A stretch of DNA of 24,356 nucleotides from positions 1 through 24,356 of the forward strand of contig MWEV01000010.1 in the NCBI GenBank assembly GCA_002071245.1. Reading direction: 5' to 3'. The DNA comes from Deltaproteobacteria bacterium ADurb.Bin026 (lineage in GTDB: Bacteria > Desulfobacterota > Syntrophorhabdia > Syntrophorhabdales > Syntrophorhabdaceae). The position numbers and the translations under genes were made by a program. Below, in pieces: positions 2 through 6,552 of the stretch. The notes below the pieces were generated by a model. It was not told where the DNA came from and made no database searches. It saw nothing but the letters and a program-made list of their open reading frames with translations. Numbering within the stretch: the first letter of the stretch is position 1; every line of letters starts with the position of its first letter.

Positions 2-532
2 TTGATCGCAGCAACAACCGATGTTGCACTTGAAATAATAAAGGCCTTTCGTAACGATAATAAGGTATTATTTTGTGGCAATGGAGGAAGTGCAGCAGAT
101 GCACAGCATCTTGCGGCAGAGCTTTCTGGTAGATTTTATATTGATAGACCTCCACTGTTTGCAGAAGCGTTGCATGTAAACACATCTTATCTTACGGCTG
201 TTGCAAATGATTACTCATTCGATGAGGTATTTTCCAGACTGGTAAAAGCAAAAGGGAGAGCTGGCGATATTCTGGTGGGCATATCTACTTCCGGCAAATC
301 TAATAACATTATTAATGCCCTTATGACAGCGAAAGATGTGGGTATTGTAACGGTAGGTTTTTGTGGAGCGTATAGCTATGTAATGAGGAATTTTTGTAAA
401 TATGTTATCAGCATTCCTGCAGAGGATACACCAAGGATTCAAGAGGCGCATATCCTTATAGGACATATTATTTGCGAGATTGTAGAAAGGGATTTATTTG
501 GTGATGGAAAGGCCAGCAATTTTTCTCGATAG
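2..532 (+). CDS. gmhA: Sedoheptulose-7-phosphate isomerase (SIS domain), probably 5'-truncated by the window edge
   Basis: Motifs CGNGGSAADAQHLAAE, NDY, GISTSGKS and RIQEAH are typical of GmhA. The frame is open from the window start and looks short at the N-terminus. Stop TAG at 530-532 overlaps gmhB. Confidence 0.93.
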   Translation: MIAATTDVALEIIKAFRNDNKVLFCGNGGSAADAQHLAAELSGRFYIDRPPLFAEALHVNTSYLTAVANDYSFDEVFSRLVKAKGRAGDILVGISTSGKSNNIINALMTAKDVGIVTVGFCGAYSYVMRNFCKYVISIPAEDTPRIQEAHILIGHIICEIVERDLFGDGKASNFSR

Positions 533-1052
533 GGACGGGGTAATAAACAAAAAAATGTCGGAAGGAGACTATGTTAAAGACTGGAATGAATTTGAATTTT
601 TACCTGGTGTCATAAATGCTCTATGGAAATTGAAAAGGTCTGGATACATTATTATAATTGTTACGAACCAAAGATGTATAGCGAAAGGTATTATGGATGA
701 AAATAAGCTGCGAGAGATACACTCAAGGATGATCGGTCATTTTAAAAAAAATGGTATTGAAATAGATGGTATTTATGTCTGCCCCCATGATGAACCTGAT
801 AATTGTGATTGCAGAAAACCAAAGCCTGGTATGATTTTGAATGCAATAGATGATTTTAGAAACAAAGGGATAATAATCGACATCAAAAAGAGCTATATGA
901 TCGGTGACAGCGAAAAGGATATACTCGCTGGAAAGGCAGTCGGTTTGAAAACGATACGAATTGCAGAGGATATAATGGCTGATAACTGTTTGGTGAAAGA
1001 GAGCCTGTTGAGTGCAGTCACAGCAATAATTACCATGGAGGCAAGGGCTTGA
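504..1052 (+). CDS. gmhB: D,D-heptose-1,7-bisphosphate phosphatase (HAD family)
   Basis: HAD motif FLDRDGVIN, TNQ, Zn-binding CPH...CDCRKPKPGM and IGDSEKD. ATG at 504 is preferred over the TTG at 498. Confidence 0.92.
   Translation: MERPAIFLDRDGVINKKMSEGDYVKDWNEFEFLPGVINALWKLKRSGYIIIIVTNQRCIAKGIMDENKLREIHSRMIGHFKKNGIEIDGIYVCPHDEPDNCDCRKPKPGMILNAIDDFRNKGIIIDIKKSYMIGDSEKDILAGKAVGLKTIRIAEDIMADNCLVKESLLSAVTAIITMEARA
1037..1041 (+). promoter_or_regulatory. Shine-Dalgarno site for the hddA TTG start
   Basis: GGAGG lies 7 nt upstream of TTG 1049, which overlaps the gmhB stop (TTGA). Confidence 0.6.
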
Positions 1053-2041
1053 TAATAACAAGAACTCCCTTCAGAATCTCTTTTTTTGGAGGTGGAACAG
1101 ATTTGCCTGCATGGTACGAAGAAAACGGCGGAGAAGTATTATCTGTAGCCATAGATAAATATTGTTATATAAGTTTACGAAGACTTCCGCCTTTTTTTGC
1201 GTATAAACATAGGATTGTTTATTCCAAACATGAGACCGTTAACGAGATTGATGAGATTGTGCACCCCGCTGTAAGAGAGGCATTCAGATTTATGAAGATA
1301 AACGAAGGCCTTGAGGTTCATCATGACGGTGATTTACCGGCAAAATCCGGGCTCGGGTCAAGTTCGTCCTTCACGGTAGGGCTGTTGCATGCACTTTATG
1401 CCCTGCAGGGAAAAATAGTAACTAAAAGAAGGCTGGCACTCGAGGCCATACATATTGAACAGGATTTGATCAAAGAAAATGTTGGCTCTCAGGATCAGGT
1501 GGCCGTTGCTTTTGGGGGTCTTAATAAGATTACATTTAAGGGAAGGCACGATATAGATATTGTCCCAATAACCATCAACCGGCAAAGAATAGAGGAACTC
1601 CAAGATCATCTTTTGCTTTTTTTTACTGGTTTTACAAGGTATGCGGACAAGATTGAGGGTGAAAAGATAAAGCAGATGCCAATGAAAAGCGTGGAATTCG
1701 AGAGAATGAAAAGGATGGTAGATCAGGTGATAGAGATTCTAAACGGAAATGGAGATCTGATTGATTTTGGCAGGATGCTCAATGAAAGCTGGAAATTAAA
1801 GAAAAGTCTTTCAAGTCTTGTGACAACACCCCAGATAAACGATATCTATGAGCAGGCCATCAGACATGGTGCAGTAGGAGGAAAAATATTGGGAGCTGGA
1901 GGCGGAGGGTTTATTCTCTTTTTTGTTAAACCTGAAGACAGAAACAGGATTATTGGTGCACTGGCACCGCTTCTTTACGTTCCTTTTCGTTTCGACTTCC
2001 TCGGAAGCCAGGTTATATTTTACAGTGAAAGCGGGGTTTGA
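1049..2041 (+). CDS. hddA: GHMP-family D-glycero-alpha-D-manno-heptose-7-phosphate kinase
   Basis: MIITRTPFRISFFGGGTDLP, GHMP ATP loop DLPAKSGLGSSSSF, GSQDQ and GGKILGAGGGGF. It is flanked by gmhA, gmhB and an hddC-like gene. Confidence 0.88.
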   Translation: MIITRTPFRISFFGGGTDLPAWYEENGGEVLSVAIDKYCYISLRRLPPFFAYKHRIVYSKHETVNEIDEIVHPAVREAFRFMKINEGLEVHHDGDLPAKSGLGSSSSFTVGLLHALYALQGKIVTKRRLALEAIHIEQDLIKENVGSQDQVAVAFGGLNKITFKGRHDIDIVPITINRQRIEELQDHLLLFFTGFTRYADKIEGEKIKQMPMKSVEFERMKRMVDQVIEILNGNGDLIDFGRMLNESWKLKKSLSSLVTTPQINDIYEQAIRHGAVGGKILGAGGGGFILFFVKPEDRNRIIGALAPLLYVPFRFDFLGSQVIFYSESGV

Positions 2042-2044
2042 TTT

Positions 2045-3247
2045 ATGATTAGAATTCCTTTTGGTACGATAGCGGTTACAGATAGGTCAAAAGAGATTAT
2101 ATCGGAAATCCTCGACACAAAAAGGTTGTCTACCGGAAAATATGTAAGGGAATTTGAAAAGAGATTTGCAGCGCTTATCGGAGCGGAAGAAGCCGTTGCG
2201 GTTTCAACCGGCACTGATGCGGATGCGCTGGCTCTTGCTGTGCTCTATGATTTTGGTGCAGTTAGGGGTGATGAGATTATCGTGCCTGCACTTTCATTTG
2301 TAGCAACAGGCAATGCTGTTTTGCAGGCAGGGTTCACGCCGGTTTTTGTTGATATTGACAGGAAAACCTTGAATATTGATGTTGCAAAGATAGAAGAAGC
2401 AATCACAAAGAAGACTAAGGCGATTATGCCAGTTCATCTGATGGGCAAACCGGCTGATATGGACAGTATCAACAGGATTGCGCAGCAATACGGACTCTAT
2501 GTCATTGAAGATGCGGCAGAGGCTCACGGAGCTTCATATAAAGGAAAAAATGTGGGCACTCTTGGCGATATGGCAGCTTACAGCCTTTATGTCGCACATA
2601 TCATTACAACAATTGAAGGTGGTATTGTTGTAACAAACAGAACTGACTTTGCAGAGATATTAAGGTCATTGAGAAGCCACGGAAGGGCATGCAAGTGTGA
2701 AAGCTGTGTTTTAAATACAAGTTCGTCATATTGTCCTAAAAGATTCAGTCTTGGCGACAAGTCGGATATAAGGTTTATATTTGAGCGAATTGGATTTTCA
2801 TCGAAAATGAATGAGATCGAGGCTGCTGTGGGTATAGGTGCCCTCGATGTATTTAATGATGTGTTGAAAAAACGCAGAGAAAACCTTTATTACCTTATGG
2901 ATAAGTTTAGCAGGTTCGAACCATACCTGACTACTATAAAAAAGGAACCTTATGAAGACATAGGCCCTCATGCACTGCCTATTATAATAGAAGAAGATTC
3001 GCCTTTTACAAGGAACCAACTTGTCGATTTCATGGAAAAGAATGGCATCGATACAAGGAGTCTTTTCCAGTCGATGCCAACGCAATGCCCTGGATTTGCT
3101 TTCCTCAAAGCGAAAGCAAGTGGTTTTCCTAATGCAGAGTATATAGGCAACAATGGGCTACATGTAGGTGTTCATCAGGATTTGGGTTTAAAAGAATGTG
3201 ATTACATACTCGATACAATTCAGATATTCCTGAAAAAAAATACATAA
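2045..3247 (+). CDS. DegT/DnrJ/EryC1/StrS-family PLP/PMP enzyme with His at the catalytic Lys position; candidate nucleotide-sugar 3-dehydratase (RfbH/E1- or ColD-like chemistry)
   Basis: Family motifs VSTGTDA, GDEIIVPALSFVAT, PVHLMG and IEDAAEAHG. The active-site loop reads YSLYVAHIITTIEGG (His185, CAT at 2597-2599). A Cys-rich segment GRACKCESC...YC follows. The family call is secure; the reaction is inferred. Confidence 0.85.
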   Translation: MIRIPFGTIAVTDRSKEIISEILDTKRLSTGKYVREFEKRFAALIGAEEAVAVSTGTDADALALAVLYDFGAVRGDEIIVPALSFVATGNAVLQAGFTPVFVDIDRKTLNIDVAKIEEAITKKTKAIMPVHLMGKPADMDSINRIAQQYGLYVIEDAAEAHGASYKGKNVGTLGDMAAYSLYVAHIITTIEGGIVVTNRTDFAEILRSLRSHGRACKCESCVLNTSSSYCPKRFSLGDKSDIRFIFERIGFSSKMNEIEAAVGIGALDVFNDVLKKRRENLYYLMDKFSRFEPYLTTIKKEPYEDIGPHALPIIIEEDSPFTRNQLVDFMEKNGIDTRSLFQSMPTQCPGFAFLKAKASGFPNAEYIGNNGLHVGVHQDLGLKECDYILDTIQIFLKKNT

Positions 3248-3252
3248 AACTT

Positions 3253-3966
3253 ATGGTAGACGGCATAAAGACGGTCATTTTAGCGGGTGGCAAAGGTTCA
3301 CGCCTTCATGATGTTGTAAAGGATATTCCGAAACCTATGGCTCCTGTGATGAAAAAACCTTTCCTTGAATATATTATTTTACAAATATGCAGATGGGGCA
3401 TCAAAGAAATCATCATATCAGTCGGCTATAAAAAAGAGGTGATACGGGAATATTTTGCTGACGGCAGAAAATGGGGTGTTGACATAGTATATTGTGTGGA
3501 AGATGAGCCTTTAGGCACGGCAGGTGCTATAAGAAAGGCAATTTTATCATCAAATGCAAATCGTTATATAGCAATGAACGGGGATTCTTTTTTTGATATA
3601 GATATAAACAGGTTGATACGATATCATGAAGAAAAAAAGGCGGTGTTTACTATCGGGCTTGTGCATGTAGAAGATACGGGAAGATTCGGAAAGGTATTGA
3701 CAAGAGATAACGGAGAGGTTTTTGAATTCATTGAGAAGGGATGTAACGGCCGCGGAAACATAAACGGAGGGATATATGTCTTTGAGAGAGATATAGTCGA
3801 TTTTATTCCTGAAGGCATATGTTCTCTTGAAAATGATGTGTTGCCTAAACTGGTCAGTAAAGGCCTATACGGGATGGAAACAAAGACCTATTTTATCGAT
3901 ATTGGAATCCCAAAAGAATATGAATCTCTTTTCAACGATCCTCAACAGCTTTACGGAAGGATTTGA
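3253..3966 (+). CDS. hddC: Sugar-1-phosphate nucleotidyltransferase; probable heptose-1-phosphate guanylyltransferase
   Basis: ILAGGKGSRL...PKPMAPV, EDEPLGTAGA, NGDSFF, INGGIYVF and FIDIGIP. 237 aa with no C-terminal hexapeptide domain. It completes the gmhA/hddA/gmhB set. Confidence 0.82.
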   Translation: MVDGIKTVILAGGKGSRLHDVVKDIPKPMAPVMKKPFLEYIILQICRWGIKEIIISVGYKKEVIREYFADGRKWGVDIVYCVEDEPLGTAGAIRKAILSSNANRYIAMNGDSFFDIDINRLIRYHEEKKAVFTIGLVHVEDTGRFGKVLTRDNGEVFEFIEKGCNGRGNINGGIYVFERDIVDFIPEGICSLENDVLPKLVSKGLYGMETKTYFIDIGIPKEYESLFNDPQQLYGRI

Positions 3967-3975
3967 TAAGTAATA

Positions 3976-6552
3976 TTGGGTTTTTTAAAAATATTAAAAG
4001 ATTGTATAGGGGCATTTTCAGACAAGACTGACTACTACAGAATATGCTGGTATTTTGCAGGGCTAGCCCTGTTTTTTTATATCGATAAGATTTTTATGGG
4101 GTCTTTTGCCTTTGTAAGACTTCATGATGTTTTTGACTCCGATTACTCAAGGTATAAAATACTCGGAGAACTTTTTTATAAAAATGGTTTTTTTTCATGG
4201 TACCCTCACTATCTGGGGGGTCTGCCAGCATATGCATGGCACCACACACCCTTTTATATTTTATGTCTTGTGTCTTTGGTTGTGCCGTTATGGTTTATAT
4301 ATTCATTTCTTTGCTGTATGTGGATGTTTTTGGCAGGTTTTGGATTATTCAGGCTATTGAATGAATACCTGGGCATACCCAGGAAGTTTTCATTAGTTGC
4401 AGGATTGTTTTATTCAACAATTGTACAAATTCAACCGAATAGTATACCGCAGGTTGTATTCAATTATGCATTCCCTGTTTTCCTTGTATGGTTCCTCGAT
4501 CTGTTTAAAAATGTTTCAATAAGAAAGAAGATCATTCCTCTTGCAGGGCTCAACTTTTTATTATTGATTTCTTATCCTGTCCTGACTCTTCCTTATTATC
4601 CCTTGTTACATGTTGCAATGATTTTGTTTGTAGTGGATCCGGATAAATTACCTGCAGAAAGAAAATCGCTTGTAATAAAATCGTGTATTGTTTGGTTTGG
4701 ATACATCTTGATGAATCTCCCTGTTCTGTATAGCCTTTGGGATTATATACCATTGGCGGTGAAAAAAGTGGACCAAACTGTCCATATACAAACAAGTTTT
4801 GCAGGGATGCTTAAAGATTTTGTAGCACAGTCGTTTAACGGATTTTCGGAGGTAATGTCGAGAACACTGATGTTGATCCCGTTTGTAAGCGGCATTGCAT
4901 TTTTTTCTGTATCAAAAAATTTAAGGAATCTTTATATTCTATGGTTTGCAGTTTTTTTTGTAACAACATTTTTCACATCGAAAATATCTCTTATTTTAAA
5001 AGACAGTATTTTTTTAAAGATGGATCTCAGCCATTTCTCATGGACACTGCCGTTTTTGTCAATGTTAATTGCGTCTTTGAGTATCAATATGATAATCGAA
5101 AAGCAGAAGTCTTCTGCTTCATATAATATATTTTTGGTAACTGCTTTTCTTGTTTTATGTGCTATTGTGTTTTTATTGAATCTGCCGGTCTATTTGTTTA
5201 TAGCAAACATATATATCCTGATTATCATTATGTTGTTTTTAAGGTGTGTAAAATATGGAAAGCATCTTGACCATGCGATAAATATTGTACAGACAATAGC
5301 TCCAAAAAAGTTTATGCTGTGTTTGGTCATATCGATTTTTGCTCAAATAGCTATCATTTTGTTATTTTTTAAACCAAGGGCATATATGCTTATCAACATG
5401 GCGGTGTTTGTTGTTCCGATTGTGATGATGTTTGTCGTTGTGTCAGGACATATTAAGCATGGCATAAAAATGGCGAAGCCTGCGTGGATAAGGACGTTTT
5501 ACATTGCGACCCTGGTAAGCCTGTGTATGTTTTTGGTTTTACAGATAAGGATTGTGAGATTCAACGGCATGGAACCCGAGAAGTATTCATACAAACTTCT
5601 CGAAAGTTATACGGTACTCGATAAGATCAAGAAGAAGGAAACCGGTATTTACAGGATTGGAGCGGTCGGTGGCATACCTCACGTGGTGTTGGCTAACCAT
5701 GGGTTTGAGAGTATCGACGGACGGGGACCTATATCCAACCGTTATTTCAAGGATTATTTCAAATTGATCGTAAAGCCGCAACTGGCAGAAAAGAAGGATG
5801 AGTTGTTTTTCGATTCGTATTGGTATAATCTCTTTTTGACATGCGGAAGCGGTGATCAGAATTTTAACTATCCTCTTTTATCCCTTGCAAACGTAAAGTA
5901 CCTTGTATCATCCGATAACAGCCAGAAGGCTAAAGATTTATCTGATGTTGTAATGAAAGAGAGGAAATATCTTAACAATCTGTTTTACGATATTTTAAAT
6001 CCACCATTTGTCGGTAGTGACAACATGCTCAATATAAATGTATATAGGTTAAAAGAAACATTCGAAAGATGGTATCTTGCCAGTACACCGGTGATTGCGG
6101 TAAACCGCGACCAGACTCTGGATTTGCTCCTATCACAATCCGGCGACACCTTAAGAAATAATGTTATCTATGCACAGCCTGATATTGAAAAAGGTTATTT
6201 TGATAAATATGCACCGAAGAACGATCCAAGCGGAAAGATCGAATTATTGTCATATTCACCGGACAGGATAGTTTTGAATACAACAATTGCTGCACCAGCA
6301 ATAATGGTTATAACAAACAATTATGATAAAAGATGGGCCGCATATATCAACGGCGTAAAGACAAAGATTGTAAGGGCAAACCATGCCTTTCAATCCTTTC
6401 TGTTGGATAAAGCAGGGTCTCATAAGGTCGACATAAGATTTGAAGATAAATTGCTTTGGATGCTTCATTATGTGATGATATTCGGTTTTATTCTTTTAAA
6501 CGTTACATTGCTTCTAAATAGGTCAATTATGCCTTCAGGATCAGGAAAATAG
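3976..6552 (+). CDS. YfhO-like polytopic membrane protein (putative GT-C glycosyltransferase), copy 1
   Basis: 858 aa with many hydrophobic segments over about the first 530 aa. The early loop has acidic HDVFDSD and WYPHYLGGLP. The soluble C-terminal domain has YSPDRIVL...NNYDKRWAAYING...RANHAFQS, as in YfhO-family C-termini, and a final TM helix. The TTG start is uncertain. Confidence 0.72.
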   Translation: MGFLKILKDCIGAFSDKTDYYRICWYFAGLALFFYIDKIFMGSFAFVRLHDVFDSDYSRYKILGELFYKNGFFSWYPHYLGGLPAYAWHHTPFYILCLVSLVVPLWFIYSFLCCMWMFLAGFGLFRLLNEYLGIPRKFSLVAGLFYSTIVQIQPNSIPQVVFNYAFPVFLVWFLDLFKNVSIRKKIIPLAGLNFLLLISYPVLTLPYYPLLHVAMILFVVDPDKLPAERKSLVIKSCIVWFGYILMNLPVLYSLWDYIPLAVKKVDQTVHIQTSFAGMLKDFVAQSFNGFSEVMSRTLMLIPFVSGIAFFSVSKNLRNLYILWFAVFFVTTFFTSKISLILKDSIFLKMDLSHFSWTLPFLSMLIASLSINMIIEKQKSSASYNIFLVTAFLVLCAIVFLLNLPVYLFIANIYILIIIMLFLRCVKYGKHLDHAINIVQTIAPKKFMLCLVISIFAQIAIILLFFKPRAYMLINMAVFVVPIVMMFVVVSGHIKHGIKMAKPAWIRTFYIATLVSLCMFLVLQIRIVRFNGMEPEKYSYKLLESYTVLDKIKKKETGIYRIGAVGGIPHVVLANHGFESIDGRGPISNRYFKDYFKLIVKPQLAEKKDELFFDSYWYNLFLTCGSGDQNFNYPLLSLANVKYLVSSDNSQKAKDLSDVVMKERKYLNNLFYDILNPPFVGSDNMLNINVYRLKETFERWYLASTPVIAVNRDQTLDLLLSQSGDTLRNNVIYAQPDIEKGYFDKYAPKNDPSGKIELLSYSPDRIVLNTTIAAPAIMVITNNYDKRWAAYINGVKTKIVRANHAFQSFLLDKAGSHKVDIRFEDKLLWMLHYVMIFGFILLNVTLLLNRSIMPSGSGK

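Follow-up and report, generated by a model that had tools for sequence, protein, structure and literature searches.

A histidine-type DegT-fold enzyme with a conserved four-cysteine loop, encoded in a heptose operon of a Syntrophorhabdaceae bacterium and predicted to be a sugar C3-dehydratase

Introduction

The stretch of DNA considered here (the window; 24,356 nucleotides, the whole of contig MWEV01000010.1 in assembly GCA_002071245.1) stems from Deltaproteobacteria bacterium ADurb.Bin026, a member of the Syntrophorhabdaceae (Desulfobacterota). One of its genes, P0001, encodes a protein of the DegT fold in which the lysine that forms the Schiff base in sugar aminotransferases is replaced by histidine. 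The protein was found in a large histidine-type (His-type) clade together with the C3-dehydratases E1 and ColD, and it is very probably a C3-dehydratase of that clade. In its full form the favoured reading, which we consider fairly probable, is that P0001 would be an iron-sulfur (Fe-S)-assisted, pyridoxamine 5'-phosphate (PMP)-dependent C3-deoxygenase of GDP-4-keto-heptose, standing on a separate and uncharacterised branch. An original prediction, made from the sequence alone, had suggested that the protein may be a PMP-dependent C3-dehydratase of sugars and not an aminotransferase; His185, the full-length match to E1 and ColD and the clade membership support this as the most likely function.

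Results and Discussion

Histidine at the position of the catalytic lysine

The segment SLYVAHIITTIEGG of P0001, from the active-site loop flagged in the original prediction (Table 1), was paired by HMMER with SFYPAHHITMGEGG of E1, His185 falling on the histidine of that enzyme. When the same segment is paired with FSFNGNKIITTGGGG and FSFFGNKIITTGEGG, which are loops of aminotransferases (type FSF..NKIITTG.GG), His185 falls on lysine. Scores were about 3–5 bits lower against structures which their depositors had named as point mutants (E1: 206.8 bits for wild type 3bcx, 202.7 bits for H220K, 3bb8; ColD: 197.3 bits for 2gms, 194.2 bits for H188N and 192.4 bits for H188K/S187N), which indicates that the mutated position is the aligned one. 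Lysine, as in the S-x-x-x-x-K loop of sugar aminotransferases such as PerA, PseC, ArnB and WecE, stood in the column of position 185 in 33 of 33 lysine-type (Lys-type) relatives. Thus the claim that histidine occupies the position of the catalytic lysine was confirmed, and so was the statement that the codon CAT lies two positions away from both AAA and AAG. A base-call error or a degenerate, decaying allele could be ruled out, since His185 is present in all 81 orthologues from genomes of GTDB species; it is also invariant in 18 homologues of 72–77% identity from Nitrospirota, Omnitrophota, Phycisphaerales, Syntrophorhabdaceae and other groups. Two findings which, according to the original prediction, should count against it were looked for: lysine was found at position 185 in no homologue, and no other lysine was aligned to the Schiff-base position. 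Ordinary Lys-type DegT aminotransferases are present in the same loci as the His-type gene, and the histidine is therefore a specific property of the enzyme of the cassette described below.

Other parts of the active site are equally well conserved among the 81 orthologues: Ser180, Tyr182 and Gly56 in 81, Glu191 and Thr57 in 80. Asp156 is invariant also in 120 diverse relatives. From the alignment and from general knowledge, the residues predicted to bind the cofactor appear to be retained, that is, Ser/Thr at the phosphate and Asp156, which we take from general knowledge of the fold to bind the pyridine nitrogen. The alignment agreed with the earlier remark that the motifs STGTDA, PALSFVAT and EDAAEAHG are closer to those of perosamine synthase (NNGTTA, PSLTYIAS, EDAAEAVG) than to those of E1 (TSGSSA, AAGFPTT, EDCCDALG).

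The DegT-fold scaffold, as expected in the original prediction, was borne out by a match to the Pfam family DegT_DnrJ_EryC1 (PF01041; 333 bits, residues 15–392), by an AlphaFold2 model with a mean predicted local distance difference test score (pLDDT) of 97.4 and by a Foldseek search. The fold alone does not discriminate, with TM-scores of 0.82–0.90 to PerA, E1 and ColD alike; the nearest structures include two GDP-sugar enzymes, perosamine synthase, which ranked first, and ColD. Among the NCBIfam models RfbH (NF011936) scored highest (285 bits; cut-off 423), which leaves P0001 below the threshold for an E1/RfbH equivalog, and every aminotransferase model ranked behind RfbH and remained under its own cut-off. 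By sequence, the top match among solved structures was E1 (3bcx), aligned in a single stretch over residues 7–396 (E 4.7e-60). ColD likewise aligned in a single full-length stretch (residues 1–391, E 3.5e-57). Perosamine synthase and a related aminotransferase matched strongly only at residues 13–214 (178–180 bits); to the C-terminal domain they gave just a weak second stretch. Pairwise identities were 29% to E1, 32–33% to ColD and 34–35% to perosamine synthase. Homologues of P0001 carry the source annotation "aminotransferase" or "transaminase", a miscall which the original prediction had anticipated for automatic pipelines.

Common descent with E1 and ColD

An exhaustive HMMER search was carried out over 1.84 billion cluster representatives, and the nearest 150 (50%-identity clusters) were taken; 126 of these have histidine at position 185. 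In a maximum-likelihood tree of 120 full-length rows, all 12 Lys-type rows were located on one side of a single branch (Shimodaira-Hasegawa-like approximate likelihood ratio test, SH-aLRT, 96). A second maximum-likelihood tree, for which 28 Lys-type paralogues of several subfamilies from 13 related genomes were added and the set was thinned to 96 rows, again separated the 33 Lys-type from the 63 His-type sequences by a single branch, with one change (SH-aLRT 97). Since all Lys-type rows lie beyond one branch, one change between lysine and histidine explains the distribution. The approximately unbiased (AU) test rejected a tree in which the P0001 family was grouped with the Lys types (log-likelihood difference 86.9, p-AU 0.00018); this test was run on a subset of 49 rows under LG+G4, a simpler model with a greater tendency to long-branch artefacts. 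The P0001 family has diverged by about 1.1 substitutions per site from the base of the His clade, compared with 1.9 for the E1 orthologue, 1.6–2.1 for ColD-like proteins and a clade median of 1.7.

On these phylogenetic grounds the P0001 family shares its ancestry with E1 and ColD and stands apart from the aminotransferases of the Lys type. The suggestion in the original prediction that the enzyme may be an independently derived dehydratase was not borne out. Such convergence, by which an aminotransferase lineage would have gained histidine separately and become a dehydratase without shared ancestry with E1 and ColD, could be argued from the resemblance of the N-domain motifs and of the best N-domain scores to perosamine synthase, from the first rank of that enzyme in Foldseek and from its higher identity. 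It is nevertheless regarded as extremely improbable in view of the single-branch split on both trees, the second of which holds Lys types of several subfamilies, of the AU test and of the predominance of histidine among the nearest representatives; in addition, the C-domain and the cysteine loop match E1, and the P0001 family is little diverged from the base of the clade. The aminotransferase-like motifs fit a branch of the His clade that has evolved slowly and kept ancestral features.

Position within the histidine-type clade

For labelling of the clade, P0267 was assigned as an E1 orthologue (413 bits to 3bcx; 591 bits with the RfbH model, cut-off 423) and P0159 as ColD-like (283 bits to 2gms). 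Both are contained in one subclade (SH-aLRT 99–100), and the P0001 family was outside that subclade in both trees. It is found in a neighbouring lineage, together with the four-cysteine proteins P0126, P0127, P0137 and P0140 and with loop-less His-type groups which lack an assigned function. The ColD-like representatives, which have the loop HGWIRD and no cysteine, form a group of their own inside the E1/ColD subclade, and the loop-bearing P0001 family stands elsewhere. As judged from the sequences, P0001 belongs to the His clade and is neither an RfbH/E1 equivalog nor a ColD.

The clade is far more diverse than its three characterised enzymes suggest. The nearest relatives outside the family, P0123 (615 amino acids) and P0125 (624 amino acids), have 50–51% identity and a four-cysteine loop and carry about 230 extra C-terminal residues (fusions). 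One large His-type clade with the loop HGRDSIYLSIDDDD comprises 22 representatives (P0144, P0151, P0161 and others); another, with a short loop of the HGRP type, comprises about 25–30 (P0135, P0148, P0153 and others). Neither has a known function, and three scanned members of the latter gave no NCBIfam match at E 1e-60.

The four-cysteine loop

Directly after RSLRSHGR, P0001 has a loop with four cysteines, which HMMER aligned to the loop RDCYCAPGCDNTC of E1. C216 and C218 were aligned to the first two cysteines in RDCYC of E1; C230 meets the last loop cysteine of E1 only when the KRF motifs are put in register. Each of the 57 loop-bearing orthologues (60–77% identity) has the full set of four cysteines. 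The ligands of the [2Fe-2S] cluster of E1 were reportedly determined by Agnihotri et al. 2004 as C193, C251, C253 and C261, and we take the corresponding motif to be C-x57-C-x-C-x7-C, as compared with CxCxxCx8C in P0001. From the sequence, the extra in-loop Cys221 could serve as fourth ligand. Loops of the form CxCxxC...C were found in several deep lineages of the His clade, and for this reason the form with all four cysteines in the loop may be the older one.

Loop-less orthologues, with 54–60% identity, were obtained from Omnitrophota and Planctomycetales (loci in the range L065–L091, e.g., L068:9923-11107). Their His-type DegT gene is usually followed by a Lys-type DegT gene and a GmhB-like phosphatase, and the cassette of kinase, guanylyltransferase, thiamine enzyme and radical S-adenosylmethionine (SAM) enzyme is retained. 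The coexistence of loop-bearing and loop-less orthologues parallels the dichotomy between E1 and ColD.

Cys348 (Table 1), being kept in many of the loop-less orthologues too, does not track the loop. An apparent covariation between Cys158 and Cys221 was not counted as evidence: Cys158 occurred in 5 of 5 loop-bearing representatives without Cys221, as against 11 of 30 with it, and was discounted because the five amount to one or two small related E1-like groups and because Cys158 is common in loop-less His types.

The gene cassette in other genomes

The neighbours within about 10 kb were surveyed for 80 orthologous loci from many phyla. The His-type gene is accompanied by a GHMP kinase in 64 loci and by a nucleotidyltransferase homologous to guanylyltransferases in 65; a B12-binding radical-SAM enzyme is likewise near it in 65. 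A subunit of a thiamine enzyme of the TK_C type (query similar to the beta subunit of pyruvate dehydrogenase E1, PDH-E1) was found in 46 loci, and a split transketolase takes its place in other loci. The thiamine slot is thus filled by two enzyme types, either a pair similar to PDH-E1 alpha and beta (L009:1266-3269) or a split transketolase (L092:1641-3423, L011:2783-4554). The most often linked short-chain dehydrogenase/reductase (SDR), in 40 loci, resembles GDP-L-fucose synthase, Fcl (378–472 bits, cut-off 500). Recurrent neighbour clusters which had remained unlabelled were annotated as glycosyltransferases (GT2, GT4, GT9 and MGDG-synthase-like), ManC, UDP-glucose dehydrogenase and a cytidylyltransferase. 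The hosts belong to Nitrospirota, Omnitrophota, Planctomycetota (including Brocadia), Elusimicrobiota, Desulfobacterota, Bacillota and others.

A GDP-sugar is indicated by the guanylyltransferase together with the Fcl-like enzyme, and a heptose by the HddA-like kinase, by gmhA and gmhB in the window and by heptosyltransferases of family GT9 in some loci; GDP-heptose is therefore considered a probable substrate of P0001. The product of the cassette is probably an as yet undescribed cell-surface heptose of the deoxy type, which may be branched. In 14 loop-less loci, GT9 (heptosyltransferase-type) genes recur downstream of the cassette (e.g., L081:16363-17451), which fits a heptose-derived product going into a lipopolysaccharide-like glycan. 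Literature searches returned no paper on the P0001 subfamily or on the cassette.

The operon in the window and in its own genome

In the window, gmhA, gmhB, an hddA-like kinase gene, the His-type DegT gene and an hddC-like guanylyltransferase gene follow each other in this order (Table 1), and the operon for activation of GDP-heptose described in the original prediction was thereby recovered. Only 3 nt separate the end of the HddA-like open reading frame (ORF) from the start of the His-type gene, and 5 nt separate the end of the latter from the guanylyltransferase start.

Table 1. Coordinates of features in the window, with the evidence for each.
Feature	Position	Strand	Basis
gmhA, sedoheptulose-7-phosphate isomerase; 5' end cut by the contig end	2..532	+	TIGR00441, 186 bits, cut-off 209
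gmhB-like heptose-1,7-bisphosphate phosphatase	498..1052	+	NF006506, 165 bits, cut-off 178
HddA-like GHMP kinase	1049..2041	+	NF049969 (HddA) best, 147 bits full length, cut-off 600
His-type DegT-fold enzyme gene (P0001, 400 amino acids), predicted PMP-dependent sugar C3-dehydratase	2045..3247	+	ORF, translation
Asp156-Ala157-Ala158 of EDAAEAHG	2510..2518	+	Asp156 in 81/81 and Ala158 in 81/81 orthologues; aligns to EDCC of E1
Active-site loop YSLYVAHIITTIEGG, residues 179–193, flagged in the original prediction	2579..2623	+	Translation in the frame of ORF 2045–3247
Codon CAT, His185, at the Schiff-base lysine position of aminotransferases	2597..2599	+	Sequence, alignment, conservation
Loop C216-x-C218-xx-C221-x8-C230, candidate Fe-S site	2690..2734 (codons 2690–2692, 2696–2698, 2705–2707, 2732–2734)	+	Sequence; aligns with the E1 loop
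Cys348 (motif PTQC), fifth conserved cysteine	3086..3088	+	56/57 loop-bearing and 17/24 loop-less orthologues
HddC/mannose-1-phosphate guanylyltransferase-like nucleotidyltransferase	3253..3966	+	NF052502, 190 bits; NF049965 (HddC), 178 bits

The rest of the cassette was found on contig C244 of the same metagenome-assembled genome (MAG), where an Fcl-like SDR (401 bits), a transketolase split into N- and C-terminal halves and a B12 radical-SAM enzyme are encoded on the minus strand (L092:167-4373). These genes all read toward the contig end, to which the radical-SAM gene runs, and they probably abut the truncated gmhA of the window. Upstream on C244 are a NeuB-like gene, two more SDRs and a PseC-like Lys-type aminotransferase. 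In the window, an ORF of 858 amino acids (3976–6552, + strand) starts 9 nt past the guanylyltransferase ORF; it matched no Pfam or NCBIfam model under the thresholds applied.

A 4-keto-forming enzyme was sought in the MAG by matches to PF16363. These were GalE-like, LegB/RmlB-like and ArnA-like SDRs besides those on C244, and they were rejected, none being an equivalog of GMD. The SDRs at L092:4360-5298 and L092:7114-8127 are candidates for making the 4-keto substrate.

Proposed function and alternative explanations

The characterised His-type members, E1, ColD and SpnQ, are exclusively C3-dehydratases, with the histidine as catalytic base (PMC8987622). E1 and SpnQ possess a [2Fe-2S] cluster on four cysteines near the cofactor, while ColD has no cluster and its PMP is regenerated from glutamate; SpnQ has no dedicated reductase and uses general ferredoxin/flavodoxin systems (PMC8987622). 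By homology with these enzymes, P0001, presumably of the dimeric type, would form a ketimine between PMP and the 4-keto group of GDP-4-keto-heptose. His185 would take the C4' proton of PMP, and loss of the 3-hydroxyl should lead to a 3,4-ene intermediate, to which an Fe-S cluster held by C216, C218, C221 and C230 would give two electrons, as in E1 and SpnQ; a general ferredoxin or flavodoxin could be the electron source, as with SpnQ. GDP-3,6-dideoxy-4-keto-heptose would then be freed with regeneration of PMP, the 3-deoxy-4-keto product being one with or without the 6-hydroxyl, and could be passed on within the cassette, where an Fcl-like (ColC-like) epimerase/reductase, a thiamine enzyme and a B12 radical-SAM enzyme would receive it.

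Several observations weigh against this proposal. The P0001 family stands outside the subclade of all characterised 3-dehydratases, with 29–33% identity to E1 and ColD versus 34–35% to perosamine synthase, so that the assignment of function has to bridge a deep node. The four-cysteine loop is deleted (HGIVN, HGMVD and similar) in 24 orthologues of the same cassette, from which it follows that a cluster, if present, is dispensable for the pathway step. The second cysteine of EDCC in E1 is Ala158 in the P0001 family (81 of 81), the spacing of the cysteines is unlike that in E1, and the loop may hold Zn or a [4Fe-4S] cluster instead. As to partners, a GMD-like 4,6-dehydratase was present in only 13 of the 80 loci, with an RmlB-like SDR in 7 more; the window yielded no 4-keto-forming enzyme, nor could a GMD equivalog be recognised among the genes of the 87%-complete MAG. 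Neither a ferredoxin nor an E3-like reductase appeared among those recurrent neighbour clusters of the 80 loci which were labelled or annotated, part of the clusters having been annotated, and no E3 (AscD-type) reductase or ferredoxin was seen in the window in Pfam and NCBIfam scans.

Part of this evidence would suit a chemistry of the ColD type, in which C3 dehydration is followed by hydrolysis of an enamine and PMP is regenerated from glutamate, and the loop binds Zn or has a structural or regulatory role and transfers no electrons. The substrate is probably a GDP-sugar, as it is for ColD and for the C3-dehydratases of the Campylobacter heptose pathways, which need only pyridoxal 5'-phosphate (PLP) and glutamate; a reductase partner does not recur in the cassette; the loop-less orthologues in the same position presumably perform the same step without a cluster; and an alanine is aligned to the second cysteine of EDCC. 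On the other hand, the retention of four cysteines in every loop-bearing orthologue down to 60% identity and the alignment of the loop with the Fe-S loop of E1 speak against such an enzyme, and SpnQ likewise runs on general reductases (PMC8987622). The cassette is found, moreover, mostly in lineages regarded as anaerobic, with plentiful ferredoxins, and this too is counted against the hydrolytic mechanism, which we consider rather unlikely. That P0001 is of the Fe-S type and reductive rather than of the ColD type is held with moderate confidence. Quite improbable, in our estimate, is a His-type chemistry other than C3 dehydration, for example, transamination with PMP in the absence of a Schiff-base lysine (a side reaction of SpnQ), epimerisation, or a function tied to the thiamine or radical-SAM enzymes at a different carbon or on a non-nucleotide substrate. 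It could be entertained because the family lies outside the sole characterised subclade, because large His-type clades are without known function and a supply of the 4-keto sugar was not found among the genes of the MAG, and because SpnQ transaminates when the reductase is absent (PMC8987622). Against it stand the uniform activity of the characterised His-type members, the Fcl-like partner, the SDR most often linked, whose substrates in known pathways are GDP-4-keto sugars, and the Lys-type aminotransferases in the same loci, which already serve amination.

Comparison with known systems

E1 (AscC/DdhC/RfbH; the CDP-6-deoxy-L-threo-D-glycero-4-hexulose 3-dehydrase of Yersinia and Salmonella, 3bcx) shares with P0001 the DegT fold, the histidine, a cysteine-rich loop in the same place and membership in the His clade. 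P0001 differs from it by its low identity (29%) and its position outside the E1/ColD subclade, by Ala158 in place of the EDCC cysteine and by the additional Cys221; moreover, the nucleotide is probably GDP and not CDP, and a gene for the partner E3 (AscD) was not found among the labelled or annotated neighbours of the orthologues of P0001. ColD (WbdK; GDP-4-keto-6-deoxy-D-mannose 3-dehydratase) is similarly a His-type DegT protein with a full-length match and a probable GDP-sugar substrate in common, and its pairing with ColC is mirrored by the pairing of the His-type DegT enzyme with the Fcl-like SDR in the cassette. Unlike P0001, ColD is without a cysteine loop or cluster and belongs to a different subclade (32–33% identity). 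A precedent of the ColD type for heptoses, which the original prediction had mentioned, does exist: the C3-dehydratases of Campylobacter jejuni HS:5/HS:11 are ColD orthologues, 62–67% identical to ColD, which act on GDP-6-deoxy-4-keto-heptose with PLP and glutamate (PMC10440746).

SpnQ, the dTDP-4-keto-2,6-dideoxyglucose 3-dehydrase of the forosamine pathway of spinosyn, is an Fe-S His-type enzyme without a dedicated reductase, which is the situation proposed for P0001. It is an actinomycete enzyme for a dTDP-sugar, compared with P0001 by its described properties. GDP-perosamine synthase (PerA, 3bn1/3dr4) and other Lys-type DegT enzymes have the fold (TM-score 0.86–0.87), the highest identity (34–35%) and the N-domain motifs in common with P0001, but they possess the Schiff-base lysine, lack the cysteine loop, match the C-domain weakly and lie on the opposite side of the Lys/His branch.

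The arrangement of the cassette also recalls the yersiniose pathway, where E1 and E3 are followed by the thiamine enzyme YerE, as well as sugar C-branching of the AviB1/AviB2 type. C3-deoxygenation to a 3-deoxy-4-keto sugar is succeeded by thiamine-dependent branching. The resemblance would lie in the coupling of the His-type DegT enzyme to a predicted thiamine enzyme, either a PDH-E1-like pair or a split transketolase. Unlike the yersiniose pathway, the cassette has other families of thiamine enzymes, would use GDP-heptose instead of CDP-hexose and includes a B12 radical-SAM enzyme.

Conclusions

Enzymes of this kind, and the chemistry likely for P0001, have been described before, and P0001 extends that knowledge without a new principle. 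New are its branch, which lies outside the characterised subclade, the presence of all four cysteines in the loop together with Ala158, the probable specificity of an Fe-S-type enzyme for a GDP-sugar, and the cassette. A wider view, which is possible but doubtful, may be offered tentatively: the P0001 family could be the least-diverged form still surviving of an ancestral sugar 3-deoxygenase that held its four Fe-S ligands within a single loop; E1, with a ligand shifted to EDCC, and ColD, which is free of a cluster, would have arisen from it later. P0001 would then be the first 3-dehydratase of the Fe-S type acting on a GDP-sugar, and its 3-deoxy-4-keto-heptose would go to the thiamine and B12 radical-SAM enzymes to yield an undescribed branched or extended surface sugar of many uncultured, mostly anaerobic phyla.

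Just E1, ColD and SpnQ have been characterised among the His-type DegT proteins, and they belong to one subclade, whereas 126 of the 150 nearest clusters are His-type, mostly without known function. The label "3-dehydratase" thus spans a much larger and mostly unexplored clade, whose members are called aminotransferases by annotation pipelines. With its four-cysteine loop, its aminotransferase-like motifs and its loop-less orthologues, the P0001 family is a natural system for relating the reductive (E1) and the hydrolytic (ColD) modes of C3 deoxygenation.

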